Assembly: GCA_905178155.1 (NCBI GenBank)
Contig: CAJINV010000001.1
Coordinates: 6,419,860-6,483,859, forward strand
Source: Amoebophrya sp. A120
Lineage: Eukaryota > Protista > Dinoflagellata
DNA: 64,000 nt
Direction: 5' to 3'
Shown here piece by piece: positions 4,490 to 60,319 of this stretch. Position 1 is the first letter of the stretch. Each line of letters opens with the position of its first letter. The notes under the pieces were generated by a model. It was not told the origin of the DNA, made no database searches, and saw nothing but the letters and a program-made list of their open reading frames with translations. The translations under genes and the position numbers were made by a program.

Positions 4490-5598
4490 AAATGATACGC
4501 CATCGAATCAGATCTGTCGAGTGGTTGATGCAAAAAGTCGTGCAGTCGCAAAGCAAACGCAAACAGCTTCAATTTTAAAACATGAAATTATGTGTGTATT
4601 CAAAACTCGTGTGTGTAAATAGTATAGTGGATGAGTCATCCTGCTTATCGATATCGTTTATTTTTTGCTACTAGTACTACACATCTGAGGATGACCCCAA
4701 TGAACCAATATCGCGCATACCCCCCGCACCCGTAGGATTCTACTTCATGATTAAGTATTTTCATTATGATGACGAGAGAACCCATGAGTATTGAAAACGA
4801 TCGTGCTGGTTGGCACTGATCATGGAAAAAGTTCAAGATTAAGATTTCCTTGTCCTCTCCTTCTGAATCTTGCAGGAGAAGGTTGTAAACCATGGGTGTG
4901 AAGATGGTATACACAACTTCTTTCACGCTGCAGAGTTCTGATGTTCATCAATCGTTTCTGCAGTTTTAGTGAGCGCCAGAAGATGAAGAACAAGAAGATC
5001 AAGCTCAAGAAGAACGCGCACCGCAGCCATTCCGCCGTCGTTCACGTTCTCTGTGAGGAGCAGAAGATAAGAAGCTTACCAGAGTAAGCTAGCCGCAGAA
5101 GTACGTTGGTTATGGTTCCCAATCCAAAATGTTGTAGATGTGGTTCAAGAAGTCTCGCTGACGTGGAGATGAGGTGTAATACGAGGTCGAAAGCGAAATT
5201 CCAAAACGACACACAAAATGATGTATGTAAAGAATAGGTCACATACGGAACAGAAGCCAGGGTAGGAAGTTAACGTTTGAAAAAATAGAAGGACGACTTC
5301 ACACTTCTTCATCAGGCGAACTATAGGAATACTTTATATGCGCCGTTAGCAATTCTTTACATTTTTCCAAAATCAAATTTAGGTCGTACATCGCAATGCA
5401 AGAACGCACTTCATCTCGGTCTCATTTTATTCACTTCTTTGTCTAGCGACCATGATCACAAATCCGGTCGATAACTCAGAGTATTGGCATTCGACATGTT
5501 AGATTCTCATTGAGAATTAGAAAACGCGACACGAGTACCACAACTTGAGTAGTGTATTATACACCTCAAAAGTATAAGTATATCGACCAGCACCAATC

Positions 5599-24500: not shown

Positions 24501-27500
24501 GACGCACAAGCTTTTGCTCGCGAGGACGCCGCAGATGTGCTCCTGGGCCGAGTTGCAAGCATTCGCGAGCACGCCGATGGTTTTGGATCCGGGCTACAAG
24601 TTCCCGGAAGTCCCAGCGGTGTTGCAGATTGACCAACTGCGTATCTCCAGTATCCGCCTGCTAATCTGGGTGGAGCTCTTACTAGACAATATGGACTTCC
24701 TACCCGAGTCCGCCAAGACCGTGATTCGCGTCCTCTCTTTCGGCAACAGCTTCACAGTCGAGCGCGGCGAGCTGATTTTCGACGCCATTGGCGGGCCGCC
24801 TCAGCACCTGTCCACCAGCAACGTGTACGCGACCGCCGATGCCGCTGCCGCGGTGAAGGGCAAGGGTAAAAAGGGCAAAAATCTTGGCTTGCTCGGTCCG
24901 GTGCAGGAGGAAATCGCCATCGAGTCCGACCACAGTGCGGCCGAGTCGGAGAAGCCGGAGTACGTGGTGATTACGCCGTTCCGCGGTTCCATGCCAGTGT
25001 TTCTGCAGGGCCTGCTCTGCGAGTACACGCGCAACCTTCTGATCAACGTGATGAAAATCCTGGGCAAGTCCGGCACGCTCACCCTCGCGCGGTCGCCGTT
25101 GCAGGCCACTTCGAAGACCTTCGTGTTTTTCTCCGATTCGCTGGGAGGACTGTTCGCCGACGGCGCGCACATTTTCAACCACTTGACCTTTGATCCGGAG
25201 TACATCAGGAATCAGAAGAAAGTCCGGGCCATGAAGAAGGCCGAAATCGACGGTCTCATGGCAGGAGCAGGCGAAGCGCTGAAATCGCTGGGCGATGGCG
25301 CCGTAGGTTTGTTCGACATCGTCACCAAGCCGATCGAGGGTGCGCAAGAAGACGGCGTCGCGGGCTTCTTCACCGGCCTGGGGCAAGGGGCCATGGGCAC
25401 GCTTGTGAAGCCCTGGACAGCTCTGGGAGGGGCAATTGCCGACGTTGGTACGGGCATTTCCGCAGCGATTGCCACCGAGAAGACAGCCCAGAATAGGAAA
25501 GGGGTAAATCTAAATACATTCATAAATCATATTATAATAGTACTCAGCATTTTGTTTTCATTTCACCAGGTCCAGTTCGTTGTCGTTGCTTGTGTTTGCA
25601 TGGTTTTTTCTTTTCCTAGCTTGAGAATGTAGCTGCCACGCCATGAACATCCTTCAACAGCGGGAAGCAATGATTTCAAAAAATCAAATACGAAAACAGA
25701 TGGCCTTCGCACGCACCCTGATCGAGCCAAAGCGCCTTCCCCGGTTCCTGAGCGGCAACATGGGCGTGATCGAGTGGTACGACCCCATTGCCGCCCGTGT
25801 GCTCCACCATTGCCACCTGTTTGTCAGGCACGCGGAGCTGATGGTGCCCTTCGGACTGGTTCCCACGGCCGAAGCAGGCGCGCTTGGCGACGACGCGGCC
25901 GACGTGGACTACGGCCCGGCGATGTACGTTCTCTTCGCGCACCCAGACCACATTTCCTTCGCGCGCGTTCCGATGCGGGTGGAGTACAAGAAAAACGCGA
26001 TATCGCCGCTGGACGATGAAGAGGAAGAGGTCAACGTCCTCACCGCGATTGGCGAGGCCGGCGCGAACGTTTTGTCCGCGGCGTTGGTCTATCAACTGTA
26101 AAAATGTCTGGGTGTGGAAGATTTCGAAACTTGTGATGCACGTCTTGCATGAGCCATGATGTCTGTGATGCGCGCCCTAGCATCACATATTTTCGGAGGG
26201 CATCTTGATGCCTATTCCGCATGACAAATGCCCTATGTATCCTTGTAGCAAAACTTATACTCCTTTTGCTACTCATGCAGTACAGATTTTTTTGGAATCC
26301 AAATGCAGCATCACAAGTTGCATTCTTCCAGACCCAGACACTTTTGCAATCCATATGGTCCCTGCCGCGACGGCGGGAGCGCTGATGCAGAAGACCGCCG
26401 ACATGATTTTTGAGGAAGACGTATCCTGTGTAAAAACGTCCCCGCCACCCCAGAGTTGTCATGCAGATTTGCCATGACAGGAACATTTGTGATGCGCAAC
26501 CCAATGACAGGCATTTTCAATCGTGTTTGGGAACTTGTAATGCCGTAAACAGGATCAGAAGGTCGATTTGTGATGCGGCTTTCCTTGCTAACTTGCACTA
26601 CCTTACGGACTGAAACTCGTCATGCGTGACTCGTAAAACTCCTGGGTTTGTGTTGCAAAATCCCCATCCTGACTCTGGTGTGGGTACGTTTTTACTCAGG
26701 ATAAGACGACGATGTCTACAGCCTGGCTAACGTGGCGCCCGCCGTGCGAAACCGCATCAAGTGGCAGTGCTACCTCAACAACGTGCAGAAGGTCACAACT
26801 CAGAAGGGCGCGATCACGATGCGGGTGGGTGGAAAAAACCAAGACTCGAAAAAGCTGCCGCCCTTGAACTTCCTCCGCGCGGAATGGCTCCGAATGAAGC
26901 AACTGGTGGCGAATCAGGGCGAGACATTGTTGTTCTTCTGGCAGGAGTCAGCAGTGGAGCAGGAGCTGAAGTATTCCAACTATCAGCGGTACCGCCGAGC
27001 GAGGGAGCGCGAACTAGCGGCGCTGAACGAGGGTTGGGAGACGATCTCCATCGCCACAAGATACACGGACGACGTTCCCGCGGGTTCGCCCCCTGCGAAC
27101 AGGTTCGCCCCCGCATTGCCAACGATTCCGGATATTGAGGAAGATGAGGCAGCTAGCGGGAAGGCACAGAAAAAACGGGGAATAAAGGGTGAAGCCGAAG
27201 GCGGACCTCCGGAGCGAATGATGAGCATGGAAGATTTTCTGTCTCCGGACCGAGAGGGCGAAGACGGACAAAATTCGGAAACAACGCTGACCACGACCGC
27301 CGCGACCGCTTCAAGTACTAGCAAACAGATGCAACAAGGCCGCGAGGGCAGTGCGTACTTACCAGAACAAGCCGAGGGAAGTGCGTATGACATCTTTCCC
27401 GAGTTTCGTCAAACTACGGGGACATCGTCGCAACAGAGCGACGACGAGAGATCATCTGCAGCAAGCTCTTCCAGTGTCAACAGCGGCACTAGCGATAGTT

Positions 27501-31798: not shown

Positions 31799-34700
31799 AT
31801 GACCGCCCCAATTTCTGCTCGTCGTTCCAGCAACATGTTGCTACGCACTTTCGTGAGTGTAGCAGCAACTCAGCTGCTCACCATTGCTCCGACACCCAGC
31901 GCCGCGACGAAATATCACAGGAAAAAGTGTTAACGTTTGCGGAATTTGTGATGCGGCAATGCATTACAAAACGTGCCCAAATTTGTCATGCATAGCATGC
32001 ATACTAGGCTAGATTTGTAATACATGGCTGCAATCTGTGAAAACCGTAAACGTTGACATTTTTTCTTGTGATACGAAAATGATTCCGATCATGCTTCCTG
32101 CAAAGAAGGTGACCTGCCCCGAAATCGAAGTCGGGAATTTTTGCGGTGGGACGAGTCGGGAGCAAACTCCGACCTATGCCGCTTACCAGAGCGACCAAAG
32201 TACAGCCGCATCTCCTTATGGAGGACACAGCCCAGGAGGAAGTTTTGGATTCAATGTCGGCAACATGTCGCCCAACGGCGCAGGAGCTGCAGGAAGTCCG
32301 TCGAACTTTCAGTTTACGGCTGGCGGCGCAGTCAGTCCTTCCTGGCAGATCGGCGTCAAGTCAATGCTCGCGCGCGGCGGCAGCGCGCCTCCCGTAGTGC
32401 AGCGCGGCAGATCGGCGGGCGAGGTCGCGTTTACTGGCGCAAACAGTCAGCAGCAAGGAAGTGCTGCGGCGCGCTCTGGTTCGGTGCCGTTGCTGAATTG
32501 CTGTGGAGGCGGGGGGAACAACAGGGTGTATAAACGCCCGGCTGTGCCAAGTGTTGAACCCACGGCGAGGGCGCAGAGCATGTCAGACATGCCAAAGCAG
32601 ATGCTGCACTACATGAAAGATCAGTACTACAAGACCTCGTTCGGACGCGAGAACCCCATCACAGATTACGTCGATTTTACCAACAGCGTCTTCCTCGGCC
32701 GCGGCACGTCCGCGGTGGTGGTATCCGGCACCCTGAAACGGACCGGCGCACCGGTCGCCGTGAAGCGGTTTCCGAAGCGCAAGGACAAGAACAGTTTTGT
32801 CACGTGGACCGACTACTTGCAGGGAGAGCGCAGGTTCGAGATCGACCGGGCCCGGGACGAGTGCGAGTGGGCGCAAAAGATACAGGAGGTCGCCGGAAAA
32901 ACCAGGTTGTACAAGGGTATTACCTTCACGATTTTTCTGTTTCGTTAATAACAGGTCTTCCAATTGTAAGTACGTCTACTACTTCTCCATGTACTGACCT
33001 TTACAACCTGTACAGCACAAGCTCAAGCATGCACTTACAGATGCGTGCCAGATCTGTGCCCCCTTTGCTTCTAAATGTGATAGAGATAGTGATTATACCA
33101 TGCAGGGTGAAGTTTTGCAGGACGGTGCACTGGTTTGTATCTTTCTTGTTTTCGCTTTCGGTGATTCATAAAAAAATCTATAACCGCGCAAACGATCTTC
33201 AGTTTCAACCTGAAAAGATCCAAAAATCATTTTCCGGGGGCGTCACCCCGGGAAATAAATTTTAGATTTTTTTATGTAAGAATGTAGTGAAAAATCAATT
33301 TGATATGGTGGGACAAACCTTCACCCTTTCCTCATTTTATAAGTGAACCACTACCCTTTGCATTACTATTAATTTTTATAATTATGATAATTGCAATTCT
33401 GCATTCGGTCTGGTGGCAGCTCCATTTCTTCCGCTTTCGTCCTCGTTTTTATCCGTTCACCTTCGTCGATCTCGATAGCAAGAGAAGAAATTGCTATTCA
33501 TTTTGCATCGTTGTGTTCTCGTTTCGTCATCGGTTTTTTTTCGTCACAGCCATCGAATCGTTGAACGGGACGGAGATGGCGCGAAACGGATTGGATGAAG
33601 GCGATGATGGGCAACCGCACCTGAAAGATGCTTGAGGTTTTGTTTTTGATGAGAAAGCACTTATTTTCATTTTGACCGCAAGGCGAATCGAGCCGAAAGA
33701 CACGCACTGAAATCAAATTGAAGCTGAAGACGAAAAGTGAAAAAGAAAATGAAAAACAAAAAGCAAAATGAAAAATAGTACGATGCCGAACAGACGCAAG
33801 GCAGTCACAGGCTGGCCGTATCTGTCGAGCGTGTCGAAAACCTTCACCGCTCCGCCCACATCCGCCGTGTTCTCCATCGTTGTTCATTTTGCTGTGGAAG
33901 CTGCCTGTTGGATTTTTGTAGTCAGCCTTGCTGCACTTGGCCAAAGTGTCGGCTTTTGTTTTGGGTCGGAACTAAGAACCAGCTAGCACCTGTGGTTCAC
34001 ATCTTCGGAGTCTTACTCTTAATCGTTTTTGTTTTTCCACCTTCGTGCTCAGCTCCAAAGTAAAAGTTTAAGGCATTGTCGAGTTTCAATTTTAGCACAG
34101 AGAAAATCTAGAAAGTAGAAGCAGTTTTTTTGTCATCGTCTTATCGAAAGTCAAAGTCTAAGTCGAGAGTTATTCTGGTTTACCTCGTGCTCGTGGGTCG
34201 TGGTCGGAGTGTCGTCAGTTCGTTGTGGGAAAGTAGATCATGAGTTGCTCGCAGGATATCGGGATGGGGTCGCGGCCGTGAGTTGTAGAGTTGTATCGTG
34301 GTCGTGCTTTTTGTTTTCGGTCTTATTTGCTCGCTCGCGTTAGGACCTTGACCTTGAGCTTGACCTTCACCTTGACCTTCGGCCTCGACATCGAACAGCG
34401 CGCACTAGTACGGGCCCAGAATTAGAAATAGCACTACAGTACTAGCAGCAGTCTATCTTTTCTGTTTTTCATTTTCTTCTTCTCACCCTGACAACTGAGG
34501 ATGAGTTTCATACATCCGCGAGTCTAGCTCTAGACTTTTAGTTCGATCACAGATTTTGATTTACGTTTACGTTTAGACCTGCAAAAGCGTTTACAGTTTT
34601 AACCCAAGAAAAAGCAAAGTAAAAACATCATGCCGCCCTCTCCGCAGTATGGCGAGGATGTGCTGTCAACTTCTGGGGCGAGGTTTGCGCATCTCCAGAA

Positions 34701-37700
34701 GCTGCTTGTTTTCTATCATCCTACTGCTCCGCAATCCGCCGTCGAAGTTGGGATCGAAGTTGGGTCGAAGGTCGGGAAGGGACAACCTGGAAAACCAAAA
34801 ACGAAAACGAGCAGAGACGGTGACAAGGCTGCAGGATCAGAAAGCGAAGATGCGGCAGTTCCGAAGAAGGACGCGTTGCGAAAACGGTACGACGTGTGGA
34901 TCAACGAAAGTCCCGCGTTGCGGTGGGAGGACTTCGCTCGGATTCAGTGCAAAAAATTTGGAGCACCGTATTCCCGCGAAGAAGAAAACCAAAGCCAGGG
35001 CGAAGGCCTACTCTCTCAGCGCGTAGGCCCGGATGCGGAACAACAACAATCACAGCAACAAAAACAAGCACCTACTGGCACTGCTGCAAATGTTTCTTCT
35101 TTTGGCGCAGCGATGAGCCCGTCGGTGCAGATCGCCGCCCAATCATCGCGAGACAACTATCTGCGAAAGCTGCAAGACGACCGGCCCAAGGAGCACCTGT
35201 GGTACACTTTGGGAAAAAGCGGCGGCACGGCGCGAGCGCGGAACAAGACGGTGCAAATCACCCGCGACGCGAGCGCGCACAGTCGCCACACGAAGACGAC
35301 CCAAGGTGCCAAACTGCGGGTCGTGCATGGAAAAGCAAAGCCATCTTCTTCAAATACGCGAGCACTGTGTCCGCGACGGAAGAAGCAGGTCGTGGCTCAG
35401 CGGCGACGTGGAGATCTCGGGCCACTGGATGAGGAAGACGACCTGTTGGAAGACGACAACCCGAATCCGCCACCACGAAAAGATCCGGACGAGATGACGG
35501 ACTGTTTGACCGAAATTTCTGAAACGGACACGTCGTGCATCGAGTCCAGCAGTGACGAAGGCGAGGACAACAGCATTCAGACTGATGGGGATACAAGGCT
35601 GCACAACAAGCGGAGCGCTTTGTTTTCCGATGGTGTTCGGATCGCGGCGGGTGGATGGTCGGAAGACAAAGCGAAGAAAACCGCCATCAAAGAAGAAAAA
35701 GCAAAGGTGACCGAGGATGGGAACGATCGCAAAGAGGCTTCGAGAGCGGAGTTGCGGTTTTTCGACATCGCGCGGATCTCCGGCCGTGCCCGCATGATGT
35801 CGCTTCTCGTCTCTACCGGCGTGGTTGCTGATGATCGAGAACCGCGTCCATCCAAAAAAAAAAATGATACAAACGAGTCGCAGGAAACAACAGGCTCCGG
35901 GAAGACAGCAACTTCTTCAACATCTTCATCCGCAAGAGCGAAGCTCGGCTTCGCAGGGCGGGCAGCTGCAATGAAGCTGGATCTGGTGAGCAGTGGGTCT
36001 GACGTCGATGATGAACCTGTGTCGCAGATGGACTTGGACATCGGCGGTTCGCTCGCAGTTATTCCCGAAGATGAGGAGGGCGTCTTTCTCGACCCGAGTA
36101 CCGGGTTGGAGAAAAATGCAGACGGGTTTCGCAGCGTGACGAAGGACCGGATCGCGAAAATGAAAACCAAAGGAGCCAACAACAAGCAGGGCAGCTCGAG
36201 TTCCTCCGGATCCGGTCCACTGAAGCTGGACCCTGTCACGGGGTTGCCGCTGTCTTCCACGGGAAAACGGCCGCGAAGCAACACTATTGAAACGTTGCTA
36301 CCGCCATTAGGTACTTGTGCTTCTATCTTCAGCCTCTTCCTGTTTTTGGATTTGCATTTGATCTACCACTAAGTCGAACTCTAGCAAGCAACGCGCGCAA
36401 GTATCGTCTAAGATCGACGCTGACACTTTTGCGCATGACAGATTGGGTTTTCAACTTTATGCTTTTCGAAAGCGACTTGCTTTCGGTTTTGAATTTGATT
36501 TTGAAATACATAAAGTTGAATCAAACCCATCGAGCTTTAGATTTTGTTTTTTGAAAAGCAAAAATGTGAAGATGAAAACGACATCGGTTTCGACTTTGAC
36601 GCTGCAACGGCTTTTCAAAAACAAAACAAAAACAGAAGAAGACGAACACGAACCCACTAGCAGCCTGTTTGCTGGAAAGAGCGGAGCTGCATCTGCGGGG
36701 CAGGTGCAGACCCGCAGCGTGTTCATGTTGAATCCGGAGAATCTCGCGCGGGCGGATGCAGCGTCGGGCTTAGGCGGTAGCTTCGGGTCTTCTTCATCCT
36801 CGCGAGCTGCGGGGGAAGATCTGCAGGCGACTATGAGCGACATGTTCCGCAATGCCCGGGAAACAACTAGCATCTTCGGCGACGCGGTGACGATGGACGA
36901 CACGGCGTTGAAGTCTGCGGGCCCGACCGGAGAACTGACAAAAAGCGGGTACCAGTATGGGCCGGGGGTCAAAGAAGATCTCGGACAAAAGGAAAAAAGA
37001 CCAAGAATCGCGATCAGGTGCAGTCCCGATGCGACTCCATACGACGAGATCAAAGCCATGAATTGTTTCGCGACTTTGTTCAAGAGCGACTTCCGCGACC
37101 CGATGATCGTGTACAGCCACGACGTCGCTCTGCCGACAATCTCCACGGCATCGGGCGCGGAAAGTTTTCTGCAGGACCTGTACGAGGCTGCTTTCTCGGT
37201 GGGTTTTCCGTTGCCGGGAATGTGGTCGAAACTTTGCAGGCTGGGAGGGAAAATTTTGAAGTTTCGCCCGTCGTTAGTAGTTACTAGTGACAGTGGGTCG
37301 GACGTGAAGAAGGGGGTGAAGATGATGATGCAGTGGTGCGAGGCGCAGCGGAAGTACGACGCGGAGGAAAAAGATGGCGAGCCGCATTGGACAGTGTCGT
37401 GGTTGCAGTGTCAGCTCCACTTGGCGCACATCATAGGCGGAACAATCACCAGCGTAGCGTCGAAGTTGTTCAGTCTGGACTATCGCAAAAGCGTTGCCGC
37501 GGTTTCCAAAACTGTGAACTTGTGGACTGCACCGAGGAGAACAGGGAACGACCGCGGAGGGAGAGGAAAGAAAACAATTGAGGAGCTGAAGAAGGAGTTG
37601 TACGCCGTCGATGCAGAGCAGCAAAAACTCCTGGACGGGATGACAGCGATTGACCGAGAAATCTGGCACAGCGAGCGGATTCAGAGCGACCCGGTCTTGC

Positions 37701-40700
37701 AAGAAAAGCAGGCGAAGCTGGAAGAAAAAGTGGAGAAAAAGAAAAACCCGGTGAAACGAGTGAAGTCCTTCGTCCGCACCCGGTGGCTGAGTATCGGAAA
37801 GTGCATCAAAGGTCTTTGGACACAGCAGGAGGAAATCACAGCACGCATCCTGGACCGGACTGATAAGGATTTGCAGGATAAGAACCGAAAATTTTTGCAG
37901 CGGGCGAAGAAGGCGATGCTGGCGCCGCTGTGGTGGTCGGGTCTGCGGATTCTCCACCTGCTGCTCACCGAAATTGACCGGGTTGCTGGTGTTGTCATGC
38001 ATTCGACCAGCAAGGAGATGGACGGCGCCTCGGTGGAAGCGTTCGCCAAACATCTTCCCAGATGCCACTCCGTCGACTTGTGCCAGCGTGTCGGGGAGTT
38101 TTTGGTTACGCTCGGTGGGCTGGTCTATCGCGGCCTCGAAACAGTCGGTCTTGCGGGTCCTTTAGTCATTTTGTTTTATACATTGGCTAAAGAGCTCGAC
38201 ATCCGCCACCGCCCGCTCCGCTCGTGGCCGTACCGACTTGCGTTTTTATTTTCTGCGGACCAGAGCGAACGGCTGAAGACCATTCAGGACCTGTTGAAGG
38301 ATTGCGAGAGCGAAGCTGGTAGGAAGGACCTGCCGCTGGAGGTTCGGGATTTGTATCGGCTTTTCCATCTGGAGCTGAAAATGGTTGCGGAATCGCTCAA
38401 GAAGAAGAAGAACATCGGGCGGAGCCGGGCCTTCGTTCGAAACTTAGCGCCGATTATTCGGGCGTTTTTGGCTTCGAGCCAAATCGCCGAATCCCTGAGC
38501 TCCACTACCAGCTGGATCAAGCGAGAAGCTGGCGGTTTAATCGGAATGCTTCTTGCTTCTGCGCGTTTGTTTACGCGCCGCGGAGCAGGGCGGGACGTCG
38601 ACTTCGAACAGTATCTCTTCGTTGAGGACAACGCCCGATGCCAGAAAGCAACGATGCAAATCCGAAAGGAGTTGCTAACCCACGGGATACACGGCGCGCC
38701 GCAGATCAGTGATAGGTCGGATCACTTTCTGCGGAACCCAATAAACCCGCAACTCACGCCGGAAGCGATTGTTGCGGATTTTTTTGAAGTTTTGAACCGG
38801 CCGGACTGCCCGGAGGCGCCGAAGTTGGCCACAGGCGACAAAGCAAAAGGGAAAACTAGGGAAAGGCAGCAGTACGGCGCAGCGCCGCTGAGCATGAAAC
38901 TCTTTCAGTTTTCGGTTATGGACATCATCGGCATCCCCAAGTACGACAAAAACAACAACGCGAGAAAAGGAGCGGGCGCATCAAACTACTTCGTGTTGGA
39001 GAAATTGAAGAAAGACGCGGTGCTGTGCGAGGTGAACATCGTGCAAGGCGGGATGAAGGAGAAGGGTCACGAGGTGAGAATGGAAATTGACCTCGACGCC
39101 CAGTGCTGGTTCTCGGACGCTATTGGCGCGCGGAAAGAAGACCATCCCTCCAAGGCAGCAAAAAAAAACTTCAAAAACAAAAACCCGGAACTGCGCCCGG
39201 TGGTACTTGATGGCCAAAACGTGCTGAAGTACTTTCACATCGACACCAAGCAGCGGCGGAAGTACTTCCAGGTTCGACAGACGGAGGAATCTTATGTGGA
39301 GTTTTATTTTCAGCACCGGGTGCGGGCCGATGGAACACCGGATCCAAATCCGACGGCCTATCCGGGAAACGAAGCAGACCAGATTTGGGCTCGGGGTGAG
39401 CTGGTCCGCATGGAGTGGAATGACGCTTGTTTGTCGAAGGAAGTCGAAGAAACCAACATCGAGGAGAAAAAGTTGAAGAAAGCGTTGAAGCAGGACCGGC
39501 TGGATTCTCCCACGCGGCGAACGCGAGAATCAAAGTGGAACCTCGTACCGCTGCGGACCCGCGTCCCCGAGCTTGCAGTGAGTGGTCTAATCGGTCGCGG
39601 ATACGCGATCTACCAAATCGAGTCGAAGACGTGGTGGGGCCGGTTGAAGAATGCAGTTCCTTTTTCTCGGGGTAGTGTGCCAGCTGCTAGCGCCGCAGCT
39701 GTTGCTCCGCCGCAGGTTGCGCCGGACAACAATCCGAAACCCCAAGCGAAGCAAACCAAAAAACAAAAGAAAGCAGCTGCAGCAGGCGACAGTAAATCTG
39801 CAGGCGCGAGTGCGCGCGCGGGCGCACAGGTGGGCGCGGGCGTGCGCGCGCACACGCACACGGGCGTGCAGGCGCACGCAGGTACAGGCGCGGGCGCGCA
39901 GGCAGGCGCGGGTGCACGTGCAGGCGCGGGCGCGCAGGTGGGCGCGCAGGCGGGCGCGCAGGCGCACGTGCACGCGGACCCGCACGTGCACGTGCACGCG
40001 CAGGCGGGTGCGCAGGCGCATGTGCACGCGCGGGCGAGTGCGCGTGCGGACGCGGGCGCGCGCGCGCACGAGGCGGGTGCGAAAATAGTCGGACATGCTG
40101 GTGCGGAATTGCAAGCGGAAGTAGTTTCGGAGAATAAAAGTGGTGGCGACGGAAAAGTGAAGAAAACGCCAAACGGTGGCGTTTATCGGGATCGGTACTT
40201 CGGGGGGAAGACCAGAGAGGCGCTGGTGAAAAACATGATCGAGTACGAAAAGGGGTCGAGCGAGTCGTACATCGCTCCGGCGGGTGAGGATGTGCTAGTT
40301 GCTTCCACGACGCTAACGGCGTACCTGAAGGACAACAAGCTATTTGCAAAAAAACAAAAACGCAATGACAACATCGAAATGAATTCCGACGACGAAAGTA
40401 CCTACGAGTCGTCGGGAACCGACTCGGATTTCGACGAGTCTGACAGTTCTGACGAAGACTAAATGATGGCAGGGTGAGACGCTGAAGGCAGTGCTAGCGC
40501 TGCGCTTCTGATGTAAAACCCGCATGCGCTAGTAGGTCGAGCACTGCTGCAGCGTAGTAGTAAATTTTGTTTGAGCACTCACCTCCTTCTCTTTGTTTTG
40601 AAATTAGTTTCATTTTTCTACCTCGCGTTAAGATCCAGCATGAAGCGAATCTGTCATGCAAAATAAACGAAAACCAAAATTAAAGCGTGTACATTTTTAC

Positions 40701-43700
40701 TTAATGTTGCTTGAAATAGGTGGACAGAAGCTCCATGCAATAAGCTATCCACCGAGCAAAAGACGAGAGCTTCTTATTATTTATCAACGAGGCGCAACTA
40801 GGCGAATTTGCATCGCAAACCAATAAAATTATGCACAATAAATCGCCGAACTCGAGATGCAAAAGTTGACTGCAGTACTGCTAATTGCATCTGTTTTATA
40901 TGTACGTGTATGATTTTTGGCTCTAGAGTTTTGATCTTTTGATAGTTTTAGAATAGGAAAAAGCTAAAAAGTGCATCGAGATTTGTCATGCTAGAGCTAG
41001 AATCTTGAAACAAAATTCCTACCTGTGCGAAGATTTCTGGCGTCGTTTGGAGGTGTTTGAGCTCCGTTTCGCCGCTTTCTCGTCCTGCAGATCGAGGCAG
41101 ATTCGTGTGTTCCAAAGGGCAAAATAGATGAGATCGAGGCTGTCCAAGACTGCAGCGAACCGCTTCTGTTGTTGTTTTTTGATGAATGTGGGTCCTTTAC
41201 CGAGCTGAAAACTGATGACGTTCGACGCCAATCGAAGGCGATTTTGTATGATGAAACGACAACCAAAAAACAATGATTCAAAAACTAAATTGTACGCAAA
41301 GGGAGGTCGATCACTTCCAAAGGGACAGCCAACACATCACGAAGTGGCCAGGATCGCTTTGGAAGTGAAGGGCCTCCCTTTGCGTACAATTTAATTTTTG
41401 AATCATCATTTTTGGGATCGTTTTCCAACGTCCAACTTCGACTCATTTTAAGTTGTAAAGCCATCTCGTTTTGATTTTTTTCATTCTCATTCACCACCAA
41501 AAATATCATAGTAGGAGAAGAAAACCAGGTAGAAAATAAGCTAAGACCAAGTAAGTTGCGACCTATTTTCCATCTCTGTCAACCGGAGTTTCGTGTAAAA
41601 AAAGTTGCGCATCGACGTGCTTTTTGTGTAAAAAAATACTTATTTTCCATTGAATCCACCTCGAAAATGCCGCTTCCGACCGCAGCGGAAGTGAGCGACT
41701 TTGTCTCGTTACTGGATGCGGGAGAGGCTGGAAAGCCCGAGGCCGAGGCCTTTATGGCTCGGCTCTCGAAGCTTCCGTTCGACAGCAAAAATCCGAAATC
41801 CGTCGAAATTCCTCTGACCGAAGTGCACGTGTTGCGGAGCGGGCGCCACCCGCAAAACCGCGTTACAAACCCCGACAACCTGAAAACGTTGAAACACGCG
41901 ATGAAAAACAAGGGCAAAAAAGGAGGATATGAAGGAATGAAAGTCGGTACGTGCAAAATGTTTTTTCGTTTCACATACATTTTTCGTTCAAAAATATTAG
42001 CGCTCACTGTCATCCTATCGCGCAAATGTCTCGTTCAAAACTAGAGCTGCGTTGAGAATTTGTATTGCGCGTTTTGTTTTCTTTGCATCATTTAGATCGA
42101 TAGTCTCTATGTCAGTCCTCATGTAGATGTACTTGCACATGCACAGGATAACTGAAACCACACCCGCACGCAAACAAGAATAAAACTAAAACCCAATCCT
42201 AATACCAGTTCTCTTTGCTGTCGATTACGGCAACACCGGAAAGTGCGAGTACGTGTGCGCCTTCCTGCACGGCGGACATACGATCCTCGCCCTGTACGAA
42301 GAGGGGTGGTTCGATTTCGGGATCAGTGTGATTTTACTCGACCCGGAAGTGGACCAGTACGAGGCTACCAGAGAAACACGCGCTACTGCAAAAAAAAATG
42401 GAAATGCAGCAAGATCAGGAGCACTTCCTTATAGTTTGACTTCGTTATCGTTTTGCACAAAATCAAAATTAAAACTTGTTATGCAAAAAGTGAAAAGGAA
42501 ATCTGTAATGCAAAAGATTTGCCACGCAGAAAATTTGTAATGCAGAAAAAATGAAACGCCATGCAAAGCGTCTTGCTCTTGTGCCATTTCTTTTTGCAGT
42601 AGCAGCTGTTTCATTCCATAGCAGAATTAATCTCGCAGTTCGTGCTCCTGAAAAACGACGAACCCGTCGGAGTGGCTCCGTCCTGGCTGGAAGTCATCAA
42701 GCGCACCGCGCGGGTGCGTTTCCTTCTTTCATTTTAGATGAAGCTCTTAGTCGTTGCAGCTCCAACTCCATTCGTTCCTGCGTCTCCAGCTTCAGCTCGA
42801 TCTTCAAAAGTTATCCTTTCTGATTTCCATTCTGCAATGCAAGTTGTAATGCTCCTTCATGTTTGAGTGTGGTTTTCGTTTTTCATTTACTTTTTCGCGA
42901 TCTAATTTTCGAATGAAAAAATGAAAATCAAAATATCAGAACGACGAAGCCTATGCGGAACACGAGGAAAACCAAAAAGCCAAGGGCAGAGAGCCCCGCC
43001 CCATGGAGGAATGGACCGAGGGCCAGGTGGGAAAAGAGTGGAAGGGGCAGGTGAAGACTTACAAGCAAACGGCGTGCGCAATGGTGAAGAAGGGTTTGTT
43101 ATGCATCGAAAGCGAAAATATAGCACCAGCAGGTGGGGACAAAAGCAAAACCAAAAGTGAAGGGCATGTCTTTTTTTCATCCGCATGACACAAAAATAAA
43201 AAAACCAAGAAAGCAGATGCTTGTCATACTGAGAAATTTTTTGATCTTGGTTGGAGCCTGTCATGCAACTGCAACTGCTAGTGGTGCAATATTTTTGAAA
43301 ATGCATGACCGTGCCACGAATGGACCATGTTCGGAATCGCGATCAGCACCCAAGTGCCGCGGCCGCGGGAGAAGGACGAGCACATGACGCTGTTCAGCTT
43401 CGCGCACGTATTTTTTTACTTCGTTATCGTTTCAAAATCAAAAATCAAATTCAAAAGCAAAAGTAGAGCTACGCTGTGGATTAGCATTACAAAATGAAAA
43501 CATTTTTCAAAAAATTTTTTCGCTCAGAGTCAGACTTTCGCCTCCCGATCCGAATCCATTTCGAAAAAAATAAAAACTAAAAACAGAACAAGCTGATGCG
43601 CGTGGTCATCTACGACGAAGAAACTCCGGTGCGGAGTTTGCGGCTCGATATGCACTTTGCGATTTGGACCACATTGACCTACGCTTGCGGGAAGCCGGAG

Positions 43701-46700
43701 GACCAGGTCAATCTGCAGGAGGATGATTTGAAGCGGCTGCGGAGTCTGATCACATCCAACGTGTCGGCGTTGAAGTTTGACGACTTGAGCGAGCAGGCGA
43801 AGACGAAACGGGACCCCGCGGCGATGGAACAACTGACTCCGATCTCGCGGAAGGAAACCAGAAACAAAATCATCCAGTTGTTCCGCGCAATGAAGACGTT
43901 GAAAAACTTCTACGGTAGTTTGAAGTCTTTGACTTTGGGATGGACAAGGCCGATCCGAAATCGTACGAGTTGAAGTACAACGGAAACTGGATCATCCCGC
44001 GGGACTACACCAAAACGCAGCAAGAAGTTGCGGACGAAAAGTTTCTGCTGAACGAGTTGCCGAAGCTGATGACCCAGATCCACATGTTCACCGCCAACCG
44101 CTGCTCCGCGTTGACCCTCGCCGTGTGTCTGGCGGACAAGGATTTCGACGAAACGCCCAGCCTCGCGAAGTTCATGTACGTCTGCGACCGCGAGGAGAAC
44201 AGCTACTACGTCGAGAAGCTGACCGGTGCGGAACCGAAAGACGCGAAGGACCGGATCCAGAAAGCCGTGGACCAGGACCTGCTCTTGTTGCCGCTGTACG
44301 CGAAGCATGACTGCTACGCTTTGGACGAAACCGTGGATGTGCGATCCAACTGGGGGTCGAAGCCCGGTAAGAAGACTTCCAACAAAAAGGGAAAGAAGGA
44401 CGCGGAAGCGGAGGTGAAAGTGCAGGTACTACTCCTAACTTAGTTGTTTTCTTTTCAGTTCGAATCTGACGGAACATATTTAGTTTTTCACTTTTTTGCT
44501 CGCATAGCAAAATGCTTCTTGATTTGAAAATGAAAATGAGTTCACGTGTGCGCGCGCGCACGTGCGCGTGCGTGCACGTGGGTGCGCGTGCACATGCGTG
44601 CGTGCGTACACGTGCGCGCGCGCCCACCTGCGTGCGTGCGTACACACGCATGCATGCGCGCGCGCGCCCACGTGCGCGTGCATGTGTGCGCGCGCACGTG
44701 TGCACACGCGCGTACATGCGTGCGCGCGCACACATGCACACGTGCGTGTGCACGCGCGCCCGTGCGTGCACGCGCGCGTGCGTGTGCGCGCCCGTGTATG
44801 CGCGCGCACGTGCGCATGCGCGTGTTGGTGTTCGTTTTCATTTTCAAGTCACAAAGAACTGCGCTATGCGAAAAAGAAAAAGTGAAAACCAGAATTGTTC
44901 TGCTTTTGTCTGACTCGTTAATAGTTTTTTAGTTTTAGTTTTACTTTTACACACATTTTTATTTGCAAACTTGTGATGCAAAAAAACAGAACTGAACTTA
45001 CGACGTTGCCATGTGACTACGCATGACAAACATCGAAAAAAAAACCAGGTCAAAGAAGGCCAGGGTGCCGAAGAGGAGGAAACCGAGGATCAGAAAAAGT
45101 CCCGCGAAAAACGTGAGAACGTGCTGAAGAGCGATCCGAAGAAGGCCAGCCAGGAGTTCTTGAAGCAGAAGCCCTTCCGATCCCCGCTGTGGTGCTCCGC
45201 CGTGCCCAGTGAGTTCGCGTCGCAGACGGAGGGGGAGATGCAGAGGAACGCCGAACGTGTCCCCCGCCTGCGTATCCTCGTGAAACCCGACGCAAACATG
45301 TACAAACCCCCGACCAACGACGGAGAGGAGTTTCAGCTGGACACGCTGTTTTACTATCCCCAGAAGAAGAAGCTCGGCGGTGACTGGGACTTTCAGGACG
45401 ACCTCACCCACACGTTGTCGCTCTCGTAAGATTTGACTTTTTGAAAAAAATTGACATTGACTTTTTTCACAGCATCACAAACGCATAAAAAGCACAAACA
45501 GATCTGAAATGGCACCGCGTGACAGATGCAACATGACACCAACACTCTTTTCAATCCATTTCGATGCGAGCACTATTAGCATCTTCATTGCCGCTCCACC
45601 GCATGACAAACGAGAATCACAAACAATGCATCACAGCAGGCGCGTGAACTATTTTTGGAAACCGGCCGACAACAATAAAGTCGACCGGTTGACCATGATC
45701 TCGTGGAAGACCTGCGAAGTCCCCTTCTGGGGAAAGGATGGGAAGAAGACGTCGATTAAGTTTCAAGTCCCGGTGGAGGCGTCGGTGAAAAGCAGTGGAA
45801 ACCCAAAGAAGGCGAAGCAGAGCAACATCTTGTGCTGAACCCCAAGAGACTACGGGTATGGAGTCGGAGACGGACGGATACGAAAATCAAAATTAATAAA
45901 CAGGTAAGCGCGCCTACTCATACACCTACCTCTACTTTAGATTTAGTTTAAGTCTTTGGCTTCTTGTTCTTTTAGTTTTAGAAACCACGCGAAGCTTTGA
46001 AACATCTTGCGCGCGACTTCTCGTCGCGTTCAAAAATTTTTGGTTTTGTAGCGGCTTCTTTTCGGTCGTGAAGTAGACACTTAGACTCAAGCCCCGTTGT
46101 TAGTCAAATCCCAATCCCAAAAGCAGCACCTACTCCCACTGACTCCCAGTCCCACACCATCACAAATTGAAAAAAATACGCAGGTAGTCGCAACAGCACT
46201 ACGGCCATGAAGGTACACAGCAACGGTCTTGCTCTTCGTGGTTTCAAGACTCTTCTTCTCGACATGAGCATCAAGAAAAGCTACCACAAAAACGAACTGC
46301 TCTTCCACGACGAATGCAAGTGATCGACTATTTTTCCTACCTGCTGCGGCTGCGCGGTGTTGGTCAAGTTCTTCTTTTTGGAAGCAAAGGCGCGGAGGGG
46401 CGATGGCGGTTGATCGGTGGGAAATGCCACGCAACCTAGGAGGAGAAGTTTCCAACTTTCACAAAGCTGCAGCCTACCGGTTTACTTTCGATCTAGATCT
46501 AGAAGCAAAAAAAAACATGAAGTTCTTTTGTCTTGCACAGTGACAATTCAGATTGCGTTTCGATTTTTTACGTTCGCGTTAGATTTCAGTTTAAAGCTTG
46601 AATCTCAGGAAGCAAAGCCTTCAAAGTAAAAACTACTTACGACTGGTCGAGCCCCAGATCGCCGACCTAGATTGTGACTTACGTTTACGCTTACCGCTAC

Positions 46701-49700
46701 TGTCAGTGTAGCTCGACTTCATCATTAGTTTTAACTTTTAAGTTTGTGTCTGTCACCGACTCAGTAATAGTCTTCAGCTACAGTTTAAATTTCAAAATCT
46801 AAATCATCATCCTCATCAACAAACAGCTTGTTTGTCAGCAGCGGCATGCTTGGCCTTTTGGTCAAAGCGTGGCCGTGTGCTTTTTCGCTTTATTGAAAAA
46901 ACAAAAAACAAAGCTACAACCTAATCTTCGTTTCCACCTCCGGGTGTAGTCATGCGACGGCTGCTACTTGCCAATCATCAGGCCCTCGGGTCGTACTAGT
47001 ACAAGTACTAGATCTAGAACTAATTCTAAGACAGGCAAAACCAAAATTAAAATTTTCAGGAAGGCGCTAATTTTACCCCAAGCGGAAGAGGAAAGGTTGA
47101 ACAAAATCAAAAAGCGAGCGCGAGAAAGAAATCCGCTGCACCTCTTCCAGTATCTTCCACTACTAGAACTAGGAGTTTCGAACTCGATGCAACTTGTCGA
47201 CTTTCGCTTTCATTCTTTGCGACGGCAAGATTGAAGTAGAGGCGCATCTTCACCAATTGCGATGCGGATGCTTTTTTCTTCGACGAGGTGGAGGCTCGAA
47301 GATTTTGACTATGAGACTCTCCTTCTCAACCTTTAAATTTTGAATGTCGACCTGTACCTGTAGACTCTCGAAACCGAAAAAACAAGAGCCAAAAAATGGG
47401 CCGCGTTCTCACGATGCAATGAGAACGACGCGAAGATGTTCGCGCTCGTGATCGCCTGGCAGTTTCTGAAAAAAGCTGAAACTTAGAGGGAGATGGATGG
47501 ATGAAGAATGTGAAATCGCAAAGGAGATCAGACCGTGTCTAGATCCAAAAAAAAGAAAGCCGAAGTTCCGCCAAAGACTGGAAGTTGATCGCCTGGATCC
47601 AAAGCAGGCGACCGCTCAGCTCCGAGGGGTCTAGAAGATCAAGCGAAAAAAAAAAAACGTGGATCGCCTGCTTCCACCTACAAGCTTGGAGTTTTTGGAT
47701 CTCCTTGCACTGTGCGTTTTGAATTTTTCCTCATAGTTTTTTCTTTTTCATTTCAAACTGTCAGGGACCAATGTACTTCTACTTGTGCCTGTAGGTCGTT
47801 ATCGCTTTCGTCTGAGTTTACTCTAGCTTCTCGCTTCCCTCCACAGCAAAGAAAGTAGTTGCCCTTCCGTCTGAGTTTACTTTTTTTCTTTTCCCTCGAA
47901 CCTGATCTCGGGTAGCGTAACTTCGATTCCGATCTCTACGTTTACTTTCTTTTTTTGCAAAAGCAAAAAAACAACATCAAAATGTCGGACCAGAAAGCGA
48001 AGCTGGTGAAGCTGGGCCCGAAGTGTGCCGTCGATGATGACGAGGATGGTCCGCCGCCGGGAGGGGTGCGATTTAGAACCATACACGGGGCAACACGGGC
48101 GGAAGTGGAAGAATTACACAAAGACGAAATCAACAAATGGGTCCCCGCGAAGAACGGACACATGAAGTGCATTATGTTCTTGGATGATGTTGACGAAGAT
48201 GTCCCCGGATGCACCCAGGCGGAGATGTGGGTACTAATGCTGGCGCTTTTGTTTTTTTGTTTTGCATTGAGAGGGATTTTGCGTTTTCGAGTCGAAGTCT
48301 AAATTTCAAACCTAGCAGTGGGATCAAACCGACAAGGAGGAGAACTTCGTGGACAACCTTTTTGGGATGTTACGGGGCCAGACCAAGCGGAGAACCGGGC
48401 CAGAACAAGTGGAAGTGGATGCGTCCGAGATGACGAAACAGGAGCAGCCGGAAATCATCAACCTGATTTTCAACATGGCGGAATCTGATGATAACGCGGC
48501 CTGGGCGAAGGCTTTTTTGGTGGACGAGGCGACCGGTGGTGCTTACGGATCAGCTTCTTCTTCTTCTTCGACTGGTTCCGGAATTACTCCTGGTGGAGCT
48601 TCTTCTTCTTCGCGCCCGAACAACGAACAGATGGAAGAAAAGACGAACGACGACGATGCGAGCGAGGAGATGGAGGTGGAGGCGGAGAGCACCCCGACCA
48701 CCAAGGCCGGGAAAAAGAAGAAGAAGCAAAAGACCAAGAAGTAGACATCTTTCACCTGTTCAGCGCGTCGAGCTCGAACGGAAAAGCGTCGGAATCGGCA
48801 CAACAAGTGCTTCTTCTACATCTTCAGCTTCTAACTCTACTGCTAAAACAAGAAGCTCAGACTTTTGATGACGCGAATGGCAACGAGAAACAAGCACAAG
48901 TAGATGAAAAAAAAACGACAACGAAATGCAGCCGGAGCTGTGAAATTTTTTATGGGTGTGTTCGGCGCTCCCTTCGGTGTCTTTCTCCTTCGTTGATGGG
49001 TGTCATTGGTCTGACGATGGTTCATCGCGTCCTACGACATTGCCCCGACCACTCTGACCTTCCACTGAAGCCGGCGCAAAAATGGAATGCAACAGTCGTC
49101 AGGACCGACGTCGTTATATAAATTCAGGGGCGTGGGCATCCTTCTAAACACCCACTTTTCGCATGCCAAAGCTCAACATCAAGATCAAAATCGTATTGAG
49201 AAAAAGTGGCAAATCGGTTCAAAAAAAATAGAAGTGAAGACGTTCACGAACAAAGATAATCATGCCAATTTTCATAGTTATAAAAATTGATAGTATTTCA
49301 AAGGGTAGTGGTTCACTTATAAAATGAGGAAAGCTGAAGGTTTGTCCCACCATACAATTTGACCTATTCCAGTAGGACATTCGTACAAATTTAAATTATG
49401 TGTGTGTGTGTGTGTGTGTGTGTGGTCGTCGATGCGCATATTCCAATAACCGCCAGCGTGCTGTATAATGTTATGCTCGACGCTAGTACGGAGGATCGAT
49501 GCTTAAACCAAAATTTCACTGGCTGCGCCCATCACGCACGACTGCACTTTTCAAAGCACCACTGGACTCATCTTCCTCACAAGGTATTGGACGGAACTTC
49601 GCGCATTGTTTGCGAATGAACATCGGCGAGGTGGAGATGCGACCGCACACCGATCCGGACACCGGTTTGCTGAATCCGCAGTGGCGGGAACTGGGCCATT

Positions 49701-53078: not shown

Positions 53079-54190
53079 ATGCTGCTCCAGTCGGGCGCCT
53101 CTAAAGAGGCACTGCGCACGCTGATCGTGGGAGGCCGGGGTGGTATCGGGACGGCGTATGGAAAGTTCTTCAACCCTGCGAACACGGTTGTCACCGCGTC
53201 AACACCGAAAAAAGTCGAGGAGCTGAAGGCCAAAAAGTTTGCCAACGCGCTTCAGTTGGACTTCAACCAAGAAGCACACTTCAAGAACTTGTCAACGGAG
53301 CTGAAAAACATGGATTTCGTTCCCGACCTTGTCATCAACTGCACGGGCGTACTCGGCCTGCCACACACGGACCCAGCGAAAGCGGAAAAAGGCGAGATCG
53401 TTCGGCCAGAATCTTCCGTGAAAAAGATAACGCCCGACATTCTGCAGAGGACGTTTCTCACCAACGTCTTTGCCAACGCATTGTTGCTGCGGGAACTCGC
53501 CTCGGGCATTTGGAGCAAAGCGCCGAAGGACCACCCGCTTCTTTTCGCGTCCTACTCCGCCCGGGTGGGCAGTATTGCGGCAAACGAATTGGGTGGGTGG
53601 TACAGTTACCGGGCCTCTATCAAATGCAAATATGTCTGGGTCTGGAAGAATGCGCGATTTGTCATGCTGCTTTTCCATGACCCATGGCATGGGGTTTGGA
53701 ATGCAGGACCTAGCATGACAGTTTCTGTGCGATCTCTCTCATGCCTATCCTGCATGAGAAAGTCCCTCCCGGCTTGGTCAAAACTGAACGACTTTTGGTA
53801 ATCATGCAACACAGATTTTTGCATGCTGCAGATTTAGCATGAAAAGTTGCAATGTTCCAGACCCAGACATTTTTACATTTGATAGCCTCGAAAGCGGCGC
53901 AAAACCAGTTGATCAAGACATCCAGCTTAGAGTTCAAGCGGTCACACCCGAAAGCGTGCTTGCTTGTCGTGCACCCGGGGACCGTGGAGACGACTTTGAG
54001 CACGCCTTTTGTTGGAAACGCGAAGAAGCAAACGCTCCAGTCAGAGGTCCTGGATGACGTGGAGAAGCTGTCGGGCTACTTTACACCCGACGTCGCCGTG
54101 CAACTGATGTGGAATAATGTTTTGAGCAAGGTCGGGCCGGAAGACACAGGGAAATTTCTCGACTACGCGGGCCAAGAAATTCCGTGGTAG
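53079..54190 (+). CDS. Short-chain dehydrogenase/reductase (C-factor/CsgA-like); exons 53079-53617 and 53890-54190
   Basis: GGRGGIG, INCTG, SARVGSI, GGWYSYRA|SKAA (YxxxK split by introner), VHPGTVET, GKFLDYAGQEIPW. Confidence 0.92.
53618..53884. mobile_element. IR introner inside the SDR catalytic YxxxK motif; TSD GCCTC
   Basis: TATCAAATGCAAATATGTCTGGGTCTGGAA vs right revcomp TATCAAATGTAAAAATGTCTGGGTCTGGAA; GCCTC at 53613-53617 and 53885-53889. Confidence 0.95.
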
Positions 54191-59108: not shown

Positions 59109-59261
59109 TTGTGGAAGTGCGAAGGCAAACTCGTTGTGCTACGAGTTTGGCCTCTGAAGGAATATCAATATGAATATTTCAATCGATAAGTTGTACAGCG
59201 CTATAATAAAATATGTTGACAGTTCCAGGTTGACAGTCGCTGGAACATGACGAAAACCTTA

Positions 59262-59519
59262 GAGCGAGGTAACAAATGTGCCGTTAACTCGCGCCCGCGA
59301 GTTAAGCCTCCGGCCGGCCGGCCGGGCGGTTAGCTCGCAGTTTGAGCCGGTCTCAACTTCTTAACCGACCCAATTCTCTCGGTTTGAGACCGAAGACTCT
59401 GAACCGGTCTCAACTTCTCTCGGTTTGAGACCGGCTCAAACCGCGAGCTAACCGCCCGGCCGGCCGGCCGGAGGCTTAACTCGCGGGCGCGAGTTAACGG
59501 CACATTTGTTACCTCACTC
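59262..59519. mobile_element. MITE, PIF/Harbinger (Tourist)-like, ~95-bp near-perfect TIRs, TTA TSD
   Basis: GAGCGAGGTAACAAATGTGCCGTTAACTCGCGCCC... mirrored at the right end; TTA at 59259-59261 and 59520-59522. Confidence 0.88.
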
Positions 59520-60319
59520 TTACAATAAAGGGCATTTCAATTCAAGTATGCGGGCCTCGCGATTGCAAGGCAGCGTGGTGACCCTGAGCGTCGATAGTGT
59601 TTTCTCAAAGACATTCGTGTCAAAGCACGCCGCTTTCTTCACAATGTAACTAAACGCGTAAGTACGAAAGTTCTTTCTCTTTGAAAAAAGTCTTTTTTAG
59701 TCTTTTTCTCGGTGACGGTGTTTCTCAGCTGCACAAAAGATCGAGACCATCGGTATTCCCGCAGAACAGTTCGTGAAAGTCAAAGCTTTTCGTCCCCCCG
59801 TCTGCGGTACGAGCGACGGTAAATCAGTTATCGCTCAGCGCTCCATTGCTGTCGGTCCTCCACTACTCGTTTCTATTCGGTTTTCTGTACGCTTCGACAA
59901 GATGTCAAAAATCGGCTGTATTTACGCGTCACTGAAATCGGAATGTACTAGATGAAGATGATTAGGAATAACAGGTGCAGGTCGGTTAGCATGGACTTGG
60001 ACATGACTTTCGGTTAATACGTTTCGCATACTTGTTGTTCATTCTGCGTGTGCTCCGGACCCGGAAGATGATATTGATAGTGATACAACGCATAACATTA
60101 ACAACTGCCATCCGTCCTCCACAACCACTCAGGATTCTTTCATTTTTTGTAGTCCTCCGTCTTAATCATTCGCAACATACGTTTATTTTTGCAAGTTTCT
60201 TTTTTCAATTGAATTTCAAGCAACTCCGCACCGAACTCCAAGACCAAGTCGAATTCATTTCACACATTATTACTTTCCTTCTGACTCGTTAAAATTTCGC
60301 GGCTTCGGATTCTTTTTGC

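Follow-up and report, generated by a model that had tools for sequence, protein, structure and literature searches.

In the dinoflagellate Amoebophrya sp. A120, a gene of about 4 kb lies within a 16-kb DNA transposon. The element was found in a window of 64,000 nucleotides, the whole stretch of DNA that was analysed (assembly GCA_905178155.1, contig CAJINV010000001.1, positions 6,419,860 to 6,483,859 of the forward strand; coordinates below count from the first letter of the window). It carries a transposase-like gene 1, gene 2 (41667..45838, + strand), which is the subject here, and gene 3. Comparison with a second, diverged copy indicates that gene 2 is real and that its protein was under purifying selection as the two copies diverged. 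At slightly better than even probability, gene 2 is an accessory gene that belongs to the element and whose product serves it; binding of the element's DNA or of its transposase is the likeliest mode of action. The assignment of the N-terminus to the ParB/Srx type, made in a sequence-only reading of this DNA, obtained no significant score in Pfam, PHROGs, PADLOC, PDB sequence or own-profile tests.

The element and its second copy

The element spans 33304-49354 (16,051 bp) and is bounded by terminal inverted repeats (TIRs) and a perfect 8-bp target site duplication (TSD). A repeat search identified 68-nt arms at 33326-33393 and 49266-49333 with a complementarity of 93%. End reading and alignment extend the TIRs to about 93 nt; TATGGTGGGACAAACC opens the left one at 33304 and, read from the opposite strand, the right one at 49354. 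The same 8 nt, CAATTTGA, are found outside both ends.

33296..33303, no strand: left TSD CAATTTGA, same 8 nt at both flanks
33304..33396, + strand: left TIR, opens with TATGGTGGGACAAACC; repeat search and end reading
49262..49354, - strand: right TIR; repeat search and end alignment
49355..49362, no strand: right TSD CAATTTGA, same 8 nt at both flanks

Every coding block within these borders, in genes 1, 2 and 3, is located on the + strand. TIRs and TSD together characterize a TIR (cut-and-paste) DNA transposon, and the element is multi-copy, with two copies known. The earlier statement that gene 2 is carried by a transposon agrees with the TIRs, the 8-bp TSD and the presence of another, diverged copy in which the neighbouring gene is the same.

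TIRs of 93 nt are long for hAT elements. The 8-bp TSD is compatible with both hAT and Zisupton (KDZ); the element proteins gave no Pfam match to either the hAT or the KDZ family. The passages of PMC12730594 on these groups give an 8-bp TSD for Zisupton and, for fungal IS3EU, the termini TAYGG..CCRTA with 6-bp TSDs. The termini of the element, TATGG..CCATA (33304-33308 / 49350-49354), fit IS3EU, yet its TSD comprises 8 bp, not 6.

The second copy, L103 (5165 nt), was obtained in a scan of metagenome contigs with exon 5 of gene 2. It is 80% identical to window positions 40417-45235. Gene order is the same in L103, since the final 15 codons of gene 1, which are conserved, stand at the start of this contig. 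A DNA run (X1) holding the window sequence yielded contigs with a variant over 44018-44858. The variant agrees with L103 in 39 of 40 listed letters; therefore, both copy types are present in one DNA run.

Seven of eight exon blocks of gene 2 align to L103 free of gaps, and each of the six introns scored contains 10-57 gap columns. The remaining exon block, E5, has 34 gap columns, including a 31-nt indel. Over all exon blocks, 103 synonymous changes were counted at 372 sites and 89 non-synonymous changes at 1368 sites (Fisher p 6e-26). This corresponds to a synonymous divergence (dS) of 0.35, a non-synonymous divergence (dN) of 0.068 and a dN/dS of 0.196. Taken alone, exon 1 shows a dN/dS of 0.20, exon 2 of 0.16 and the segment 42940-43095 of 0.017. 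Nearly invariant in both copies are EIPLTEVHV...HPQNRVTNPDNLKTLKHAMKNKGKKGGYEGMKV and LHGGHTILALYEEGWFDFGI. The gene proposed earlier at 41667..45838 is real, judged by its gap-free exons and a dN/dS of 0.20.

The match of L103 to the window ends inside exon 6 (window 45235). At 4847-5165, L103 is apparently rearranged, interrupted or mis-joined.

Exon structure of gene 2

Coding segments were located by codon log-likelihood, in a scan for which seven long open reading frames (ORFs) of host genes in the window served as the training set. Gene 2 starts with the ATG at 41667 on the + strand and consists of open blocks in shifting frames. The scan marks 41667-41946, 42209-~42356, ~42603-42713, ~42937-43135, ~43354-43407, 43587-43915, 43919-44428 and 45049-45425, and gives a weaker coding signal at ~45640-45838. 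A stop codon follows NILC at 45836-45838; alternatively, the frame could terminate at the TAA at 45427.

41667..41946, + strand: exon 1, 93 codons and 1 nt; first half of the proposed ParB-like stretch; the protein P0002 is 87% identical
42209..42356, + strand: exon 2, holds LHGGHTILALYEEG; 3' end uncertain (42348-42387)
42603..42713, + strand: exon 3; 5' end uncertain (42603, 42606 or 42639)
42937..43135, + strand: further exon, not quoted in the sequence-only reading, donor CAG|GTGGGG; codon scan and alignment
43354..43407, + strand: short exon, likewise not quoted there; 5' end inferred
43587..43938, + strand: large exon, first part; the frame continues to a stop at 43971
43938..43939, + strand: 31-nt deletion relative to L103, with frameshift; L103 alignment
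43939..44428, + strand: large exon, second part, in another frame; codon scan and alignment
45049..45425, + strand: exon 6; codon scan and alignment
45637..45838, + strand: possible last exon, start uncertain

All peptides quoted from the earlier hand splicing were recovered. VEIPLTEVHV and GRHPQNRVTNPDNLKTLKHAMKNKG are located within exon 1, AFLHGGHTILALYE and ISVILL within exon 2, and FVLLKND within exon 3. VVLFAV is formed solely by the join of exons 1 and 2, G|GTACGT...CCAG|TT (41946/42209). This join is well supported by the comparison of the copies: the donor G|GTACGT and the acceptor CCAG|TT are both retained in L103, and the similarity to P0002, a 110-aa product of the exon 1 ORF of L103, ends directly after the exon 1 donor. 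In two respects the hand splicing did not hold: it hid the frameshift caused by the 31-nt deletion, and its join of exons 2 and 3 has many possible alternatives. The sole strong donor of exon 2, CA|GTACGA (read as GC in L103), lacks an AG acceptor in the right phase; the frame is preserved in both copies by a dozen GT/GC-AG pairs of lesser strength. The doubts on this join and on the last exon fall outside the proposed ParB-like stretch.

Another donor of exon 2, GAA|GTGGAC, was rejected because it reads AT in L103. Over the 42 nt past the likely exon 2 donor (42357-42398), the copies differ by a single base, the T/C of the donor, a conservation well above that of the remaining intron. The segment may belong to an extended exon that uses a GC donor, or it may act in splicing as a signal.

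The large exon is one open block of 291 codons in L103 (3181-4053). In the window it is divided into two blocks in different frames, because 31 nt are missing at 43938/43939; the frame thus shifts between 43587-43915 and 43919-44428, and a stop occurs at 43971. A tiny intron between 43915 and 43919 was rejected, as it would measure 11 nt and L103 has a 31-nt indel there. The window copy of gene 2 is, by this alignment, broken. It would yield at best a truncated protein, in which the N-terminal part is kept and the end lies 19 codons past the frameshift.

Relatives of gene 2

An exhaustive phmmer search using exon 1 against 1.84 billion representatives returned only P0002 and P0003. The match to P0003, a sushi-repeat protein, is taken as spurious. 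Both clusters looked up have a single member. Word-index searches yielded no match for exon 5 among longer proteins and, for the L103 large exon among proteins of near length, its own ORF (P0004) only. The exon-5 scan of metagenome contigs gave L103 and three weak matches, L104-L106 (30% over 39 residues, 57% over 21). Two scans of viral contigs were without a gene 2 match.

Exon peptides of both copies matched no Pfam family at E values (expectation values) up to 10. PHROGs and PADLOC contributed no relevant family for the exon peptides; one weak PHROG of unknown function was hit by exon 6 (E 0.16). Searched against PDB sequences, the exon 1 peptide and profiles built from exon 2 and the large exon gave irrelevant weak matches only (flagellin, a leucine-rich repeat protein, AQ_1857). 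AlphaFold modelled the L103 large exon (291 aa, 3 rows) with a predicted local distance difference test score (pLDDT) of 33.6, too poor for a fold search. Within the databases searched, gene 2 is a protein without detectable relative beyond the two copies.

The N-terminal region and the ParB/Srx family

By eye, the N-terminus contains a strand (EIPLTEVHV), a PQNR loop, a helix (L..L..M...G), a strand, a Y-x-hydrophobic element, GGH, a helix (..AL.EEG) and a further strand. The motif order described earlier is therefore seen in the sequence, and HGGHT is invariant in both copies, as are HPQNR and LHGGHTILALYEEG.

Own profiles were built from bacterial genomes for ParB_N (18 domains) and ParBc_2 (26 domains). 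PF20188 (DUF6551) had no match in 301 genomes or controls, hence no profile. The N-terminus was spliced by script before scoring because intron 1 splits the domain in both copies, halving any score. Two local alignments occurred in the expected register, both non-significant. With hmmsearch and hhalign, residues 52-83 fall on ParB_N positions 16-47; GGHTILALYEEG aligns to HHHLGRALHDEG of ParBc_2. In a language-model atlas, the nearest named clusters of exon 1 are ParB_N (0.88) and DUF6551 (0.87). Scores below 0.9 in this atlas are leads only, and in a third of cases shuffled proteins, too, have all ten in a single clan. This lead, below the 0.9 line, is the only positive hint of ParB, and a weak one.

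Several results speak against a ParB/Srx module. With the ParB_N profile, the N-terminus after splicing reached -0.6 bits (E 0.08, one sequence), a value equalled or exceeded by 127 of 2000 shuffles; the reversed sequence scored -1.5. The ParBc_2 profile reported nothing on the same sequence. Probabilities in hhalign were 0.3% (ParB_N) and 0.2% (ParBc_2), in a comparison of low power. The exon peptides matched no Pfam family and no relevant PHROGs or PADLOC family, and their PDB matches were irrelevant. Exon 2 found no named family in the atlas. The arginine of the GxxR / DGxHR motif, correctly reported as missing in the sequence-only reading, is lacking in both copies, which read LHGGHTILAL. 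ParBc_2 sequences are likewise without arginine (DHHHL), so its loss alone leaves the fold possible. Finally, a k-mer and palindrome census of 33304-49354 revealed no dispersed palindrome family such as has been suggested to provide ParB landing sites in other transposons.

The first ~140 residues of gene 2 may still be a degenerate ParB/Srx-type module, a tentative reading with the balance of probability against it. If the module is of this type, its activity would be binding and not CTP hydrolysis or DNA cleavage, because the arginine is replaced (HGGHT).

The census found only three repeat structures, which occur in or beside gene 2 and gene 1.

41236..41443, no strand: imperfect 208-bp palindrome with 90-nt arms, 78% complementary, 224 nt before the ATG of gene 2; also in L103
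44544..44830, no strand: GC-rich alternating purine/pyrimidine repeat block in a gene 2 intron, inverted relative to 39800-40071
39800-40071: GC-rich alternating purine/pyrimidine repeat block in gene 1, inverted relative to the 44544-44830 block

Both GC-rich blocks consist of units such as GCGCACGTGCGC and are also present in L103. The block at 39800-40071 is situated in the 3' part of the gene 1 ORF and encodes Ala/Gly/Gln/His/Val repeats.

Known accessory proteins of large transposons

The sequence-only reading considered a ParB-like accessory protein in a eukaryotic DNA transposon unusual. That view is outdated, as ParB-like accessory proteins of transposons are described for brown, red and green algae (PMC12477816; bioRxiv 10.1101/2025.02.11.637652). 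Such a protein is thus not unprecedented; if confirmed here, it would be a variant form.

In red algae, giant Plavaka (EnSpm/CACTA) transposons carry PAG3 as their accessory gene 3; a preprint by Petroll et al. also reports PAG3 in association with Zisupton and with elements that bear Fanzor (bioRxiv 10.1101/2025.02.11.637652). According to this preprint, the protein has no InterPro domain. HHpred indicated a ParB-like N-terminus (best match 7BNR_B, E 0.29) and a 2-oxoglutarate (2OG) oxygenase (E 0.016), and inverted-repeat arrays lie beside the gene. As described there, PAG3 resembles gene 2 as an accessory gene of a TIR transposon of 17-19 kb with an N-terminus termed ParB-like on weak evidence and a proposed binding of element DNA. 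In gene 2, Pfam and, for the large exon, PHROG and PDB sequence searches gave no 2OG-oxygenase signal; the C-terminal domain of this type in PAG3 was likewise seen by HHpred alone, and the two proteins may differ in this respect. Upstream of gene 2 there is the single imperfect 208-bp palindrome instead of tandem inverted-repeat arrays, and the carrier has an 8-bp TSD and other termini.

Sola1-1_Ec32 of Ectocarpus (21.5 kb) encodes an accessory protein that combines a ParB-like domain with a DNA methyltransferase; similar proteins occur in transposons of green and red algae. The passage on proteins of this type cites Iyer, Abhiman and Aravind 2011 (PMC12477816). The likeness to gene 2 is that a giant DNA transposon of a eukaryote encodes an accessory protein with a proposed N-terminal ParB-like DNA-binding domain. 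Unlike Sola1-1_Ec32, gene 2 has no methyltransferase domain (PF01555) in a Pfam search of all exon peptides. The ParB domain is recognisable by domain search in the algal protein, as reported there, but not in gene 2. In Sola1-1_Ec32 the accessory gene is described on the strand opposite the transposase, whereas gene 2 shares the strand of gene 1.

Bacterial ParB/Srx proteins (PF02195 ParB_N, PF08857 ParBc_2) are matched by gene 2 in the order of elements by eye. They differ from it in that gene 2 is without a significant profile score, the arginine, a recognisable helix-turn-helix or a C-terminal dimerisation part.

Large eukaryotic DNA transposons with accessory genes of their own are a recent topic. 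The roles of these genes are mostly unknown, and gene 2, in a well-bounded element, adds to this class. It is under clear selection, yet no relative was detectable in some 15 billion predicted proteins; the transposase likewise has only one homologue there, at 29% identity. Should the N-terminus be ParB-like, the known ties of ParB-type DNA binders to eukaryotic transposons would extend past the methyltransferase and oxygenase fusions already published. It is conceivable, though doubtful, that gene 2 founds an arginine-less branch of the ParB/Srx fold on an unclassified lineage (8-bp TSD, TAYGG termini), without a methyltransferase or oxygenase partner or a palindrome array. In that case, recruitment of ParB-type modules by eukaryotic transposons would have been more frequent and more varied than the two types in the literature suggest. 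If the N-terminus is not ParB-like, gene 2 would be another orphan accessory gene.

Alternative explanations

The proposal that gene 2 is owned by the 16-kb TIR DNA transposon, and that its product serves the element, most likely by binding element DNA or the transposase, may be compared with three other explanations. The ParB/Srx likeness may be due to chance, with gene 2 being element-specific and of an unrelated or new fold, e.g. a transposase adaptor or a chromatin-directed factor. This has an even chance of being correct. It agrees with the lack of any ParB-related match in the profile tests, the missing defining arginine, exon 2 without a ParB lead, and atlas scores under the 0.9 line, where matches count as leads only. 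The five to six motif elements in ParB order and spacing, together with two local alignments in the expected register, are less easily attributed to chance. Furthermore, ParB-like domains recur in accessory genes of eukaryotic transposons (PMC12477816; 10.1101/2025.02.11.637652), and the profile tests were of low power, the query profile consisting of two near-identical sequences.

Capture of a host gene (transduplication), carried passively and with no role for the element, is improbable. Large DNA transposons often bear captured genes, according to PMC12477816, and the window copy is already broken. However, a dN/dS of 0.20 over a dS of 0.35 means that most of the divergence took place under selection. 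No parent gene or relative was found, either with exon 1 against the 1.84 billion representatives or in the word-index searches, and position and orientation after gene 1 are retained in both copies. Gene 2 is distinct from the transposase gene and, as judged from the two copies, does not look like a one-off capture. An even slimmer chance is given to domestication, by which both copies would be old host loci under selection for a host function and not active transposons. In its favour, only two copies were seen, and in the window copy the left and right TIRs diverge by about 7%. The perfect 8-bp TSD and the intact long TIRs argue against it, as does the departure of L103 from the window sequence inside exon 6. 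A frameshift such as that in the window copy is unexpected of a gene needed by the host.

The explanation preferred here, that gene 2 is an accessory gene of the element's own, also has points against it. Selection measured on two copies cannot tell benefit to the element from benefit to the host. The sequence-only reading had asked for constant co-occurrence with the transposase; gene 2 follows the transposase-like gene 1 in 2/2 copies, a match that extends to the only two copies known. In three RNA runs labelled with the same species, no read fell on 41400-46100. Host genes nearby, 9.8 kb in all, attracted just 2 reads with a partial fit, and the runs are therefore uninformative on the expression or splicing of gene 2. 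An accessory gene of this kind may act in transposition or in the shielding of the element.

Other genes and repeats of the window

The other genes of the element comprise the following coding regions.

34630..40462, + strand: gene 1, transposase-like; ORF blocks 34603-36261 and 36551-40459, join between the blocks not fixed
47982..48744, + strand: gene 3, two coding blocks from the codon scan; acidic, Ser-rich, with a Lys-rich tail

The gene 1 product (1300+ aa) has a single homologue, P0001, with 29% identity and without domains. It matched neither Pfam nor PDB entries and no known transposase family, hAT and KDZ included. Both proteins share DATP, SDxGSD, CQLHL, RTRWL and AESL; the acidic and CxxH/RW motifs were recognized by eye. 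The motif order D, D, CxxH, RW, ..AES.. is reminiscent of hAT transposases. AlphaFold modelled the gene 1 core (605 aa, 2 rows) with a pLDDT of 38.1, too poor for a fold search. Gene 3 gave no Pfam match.

In the left subterminal 1.2 kb of the element, the motif AAAATGAAAAA is repeated in both orientations (33659-33893, 34459-34482). Words resembling AAAATGAAAAA also occur in the introns of gene 2.

The window is eukaryotic and intron-bearing. Its host genes include those for a malic enzyme, a class-3 lipase, a ubiquitin hydrolase and a VPS13-like protein. Just past the ubiquitin-hydrolase ORF, a near-perfect hairpin is located at 59261-59520, with 96-nt arms that are 98% complementary and 68 nt apart. 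It looks like an insertion resembling a miniature inverted-repeat transposable element. A repeat of ~93 nt occurs at 26263-26362, 53611-53653 and 53792-53884, both direct (75% identical) and inverted (81% complementary), and may be a small non-autonomous element.

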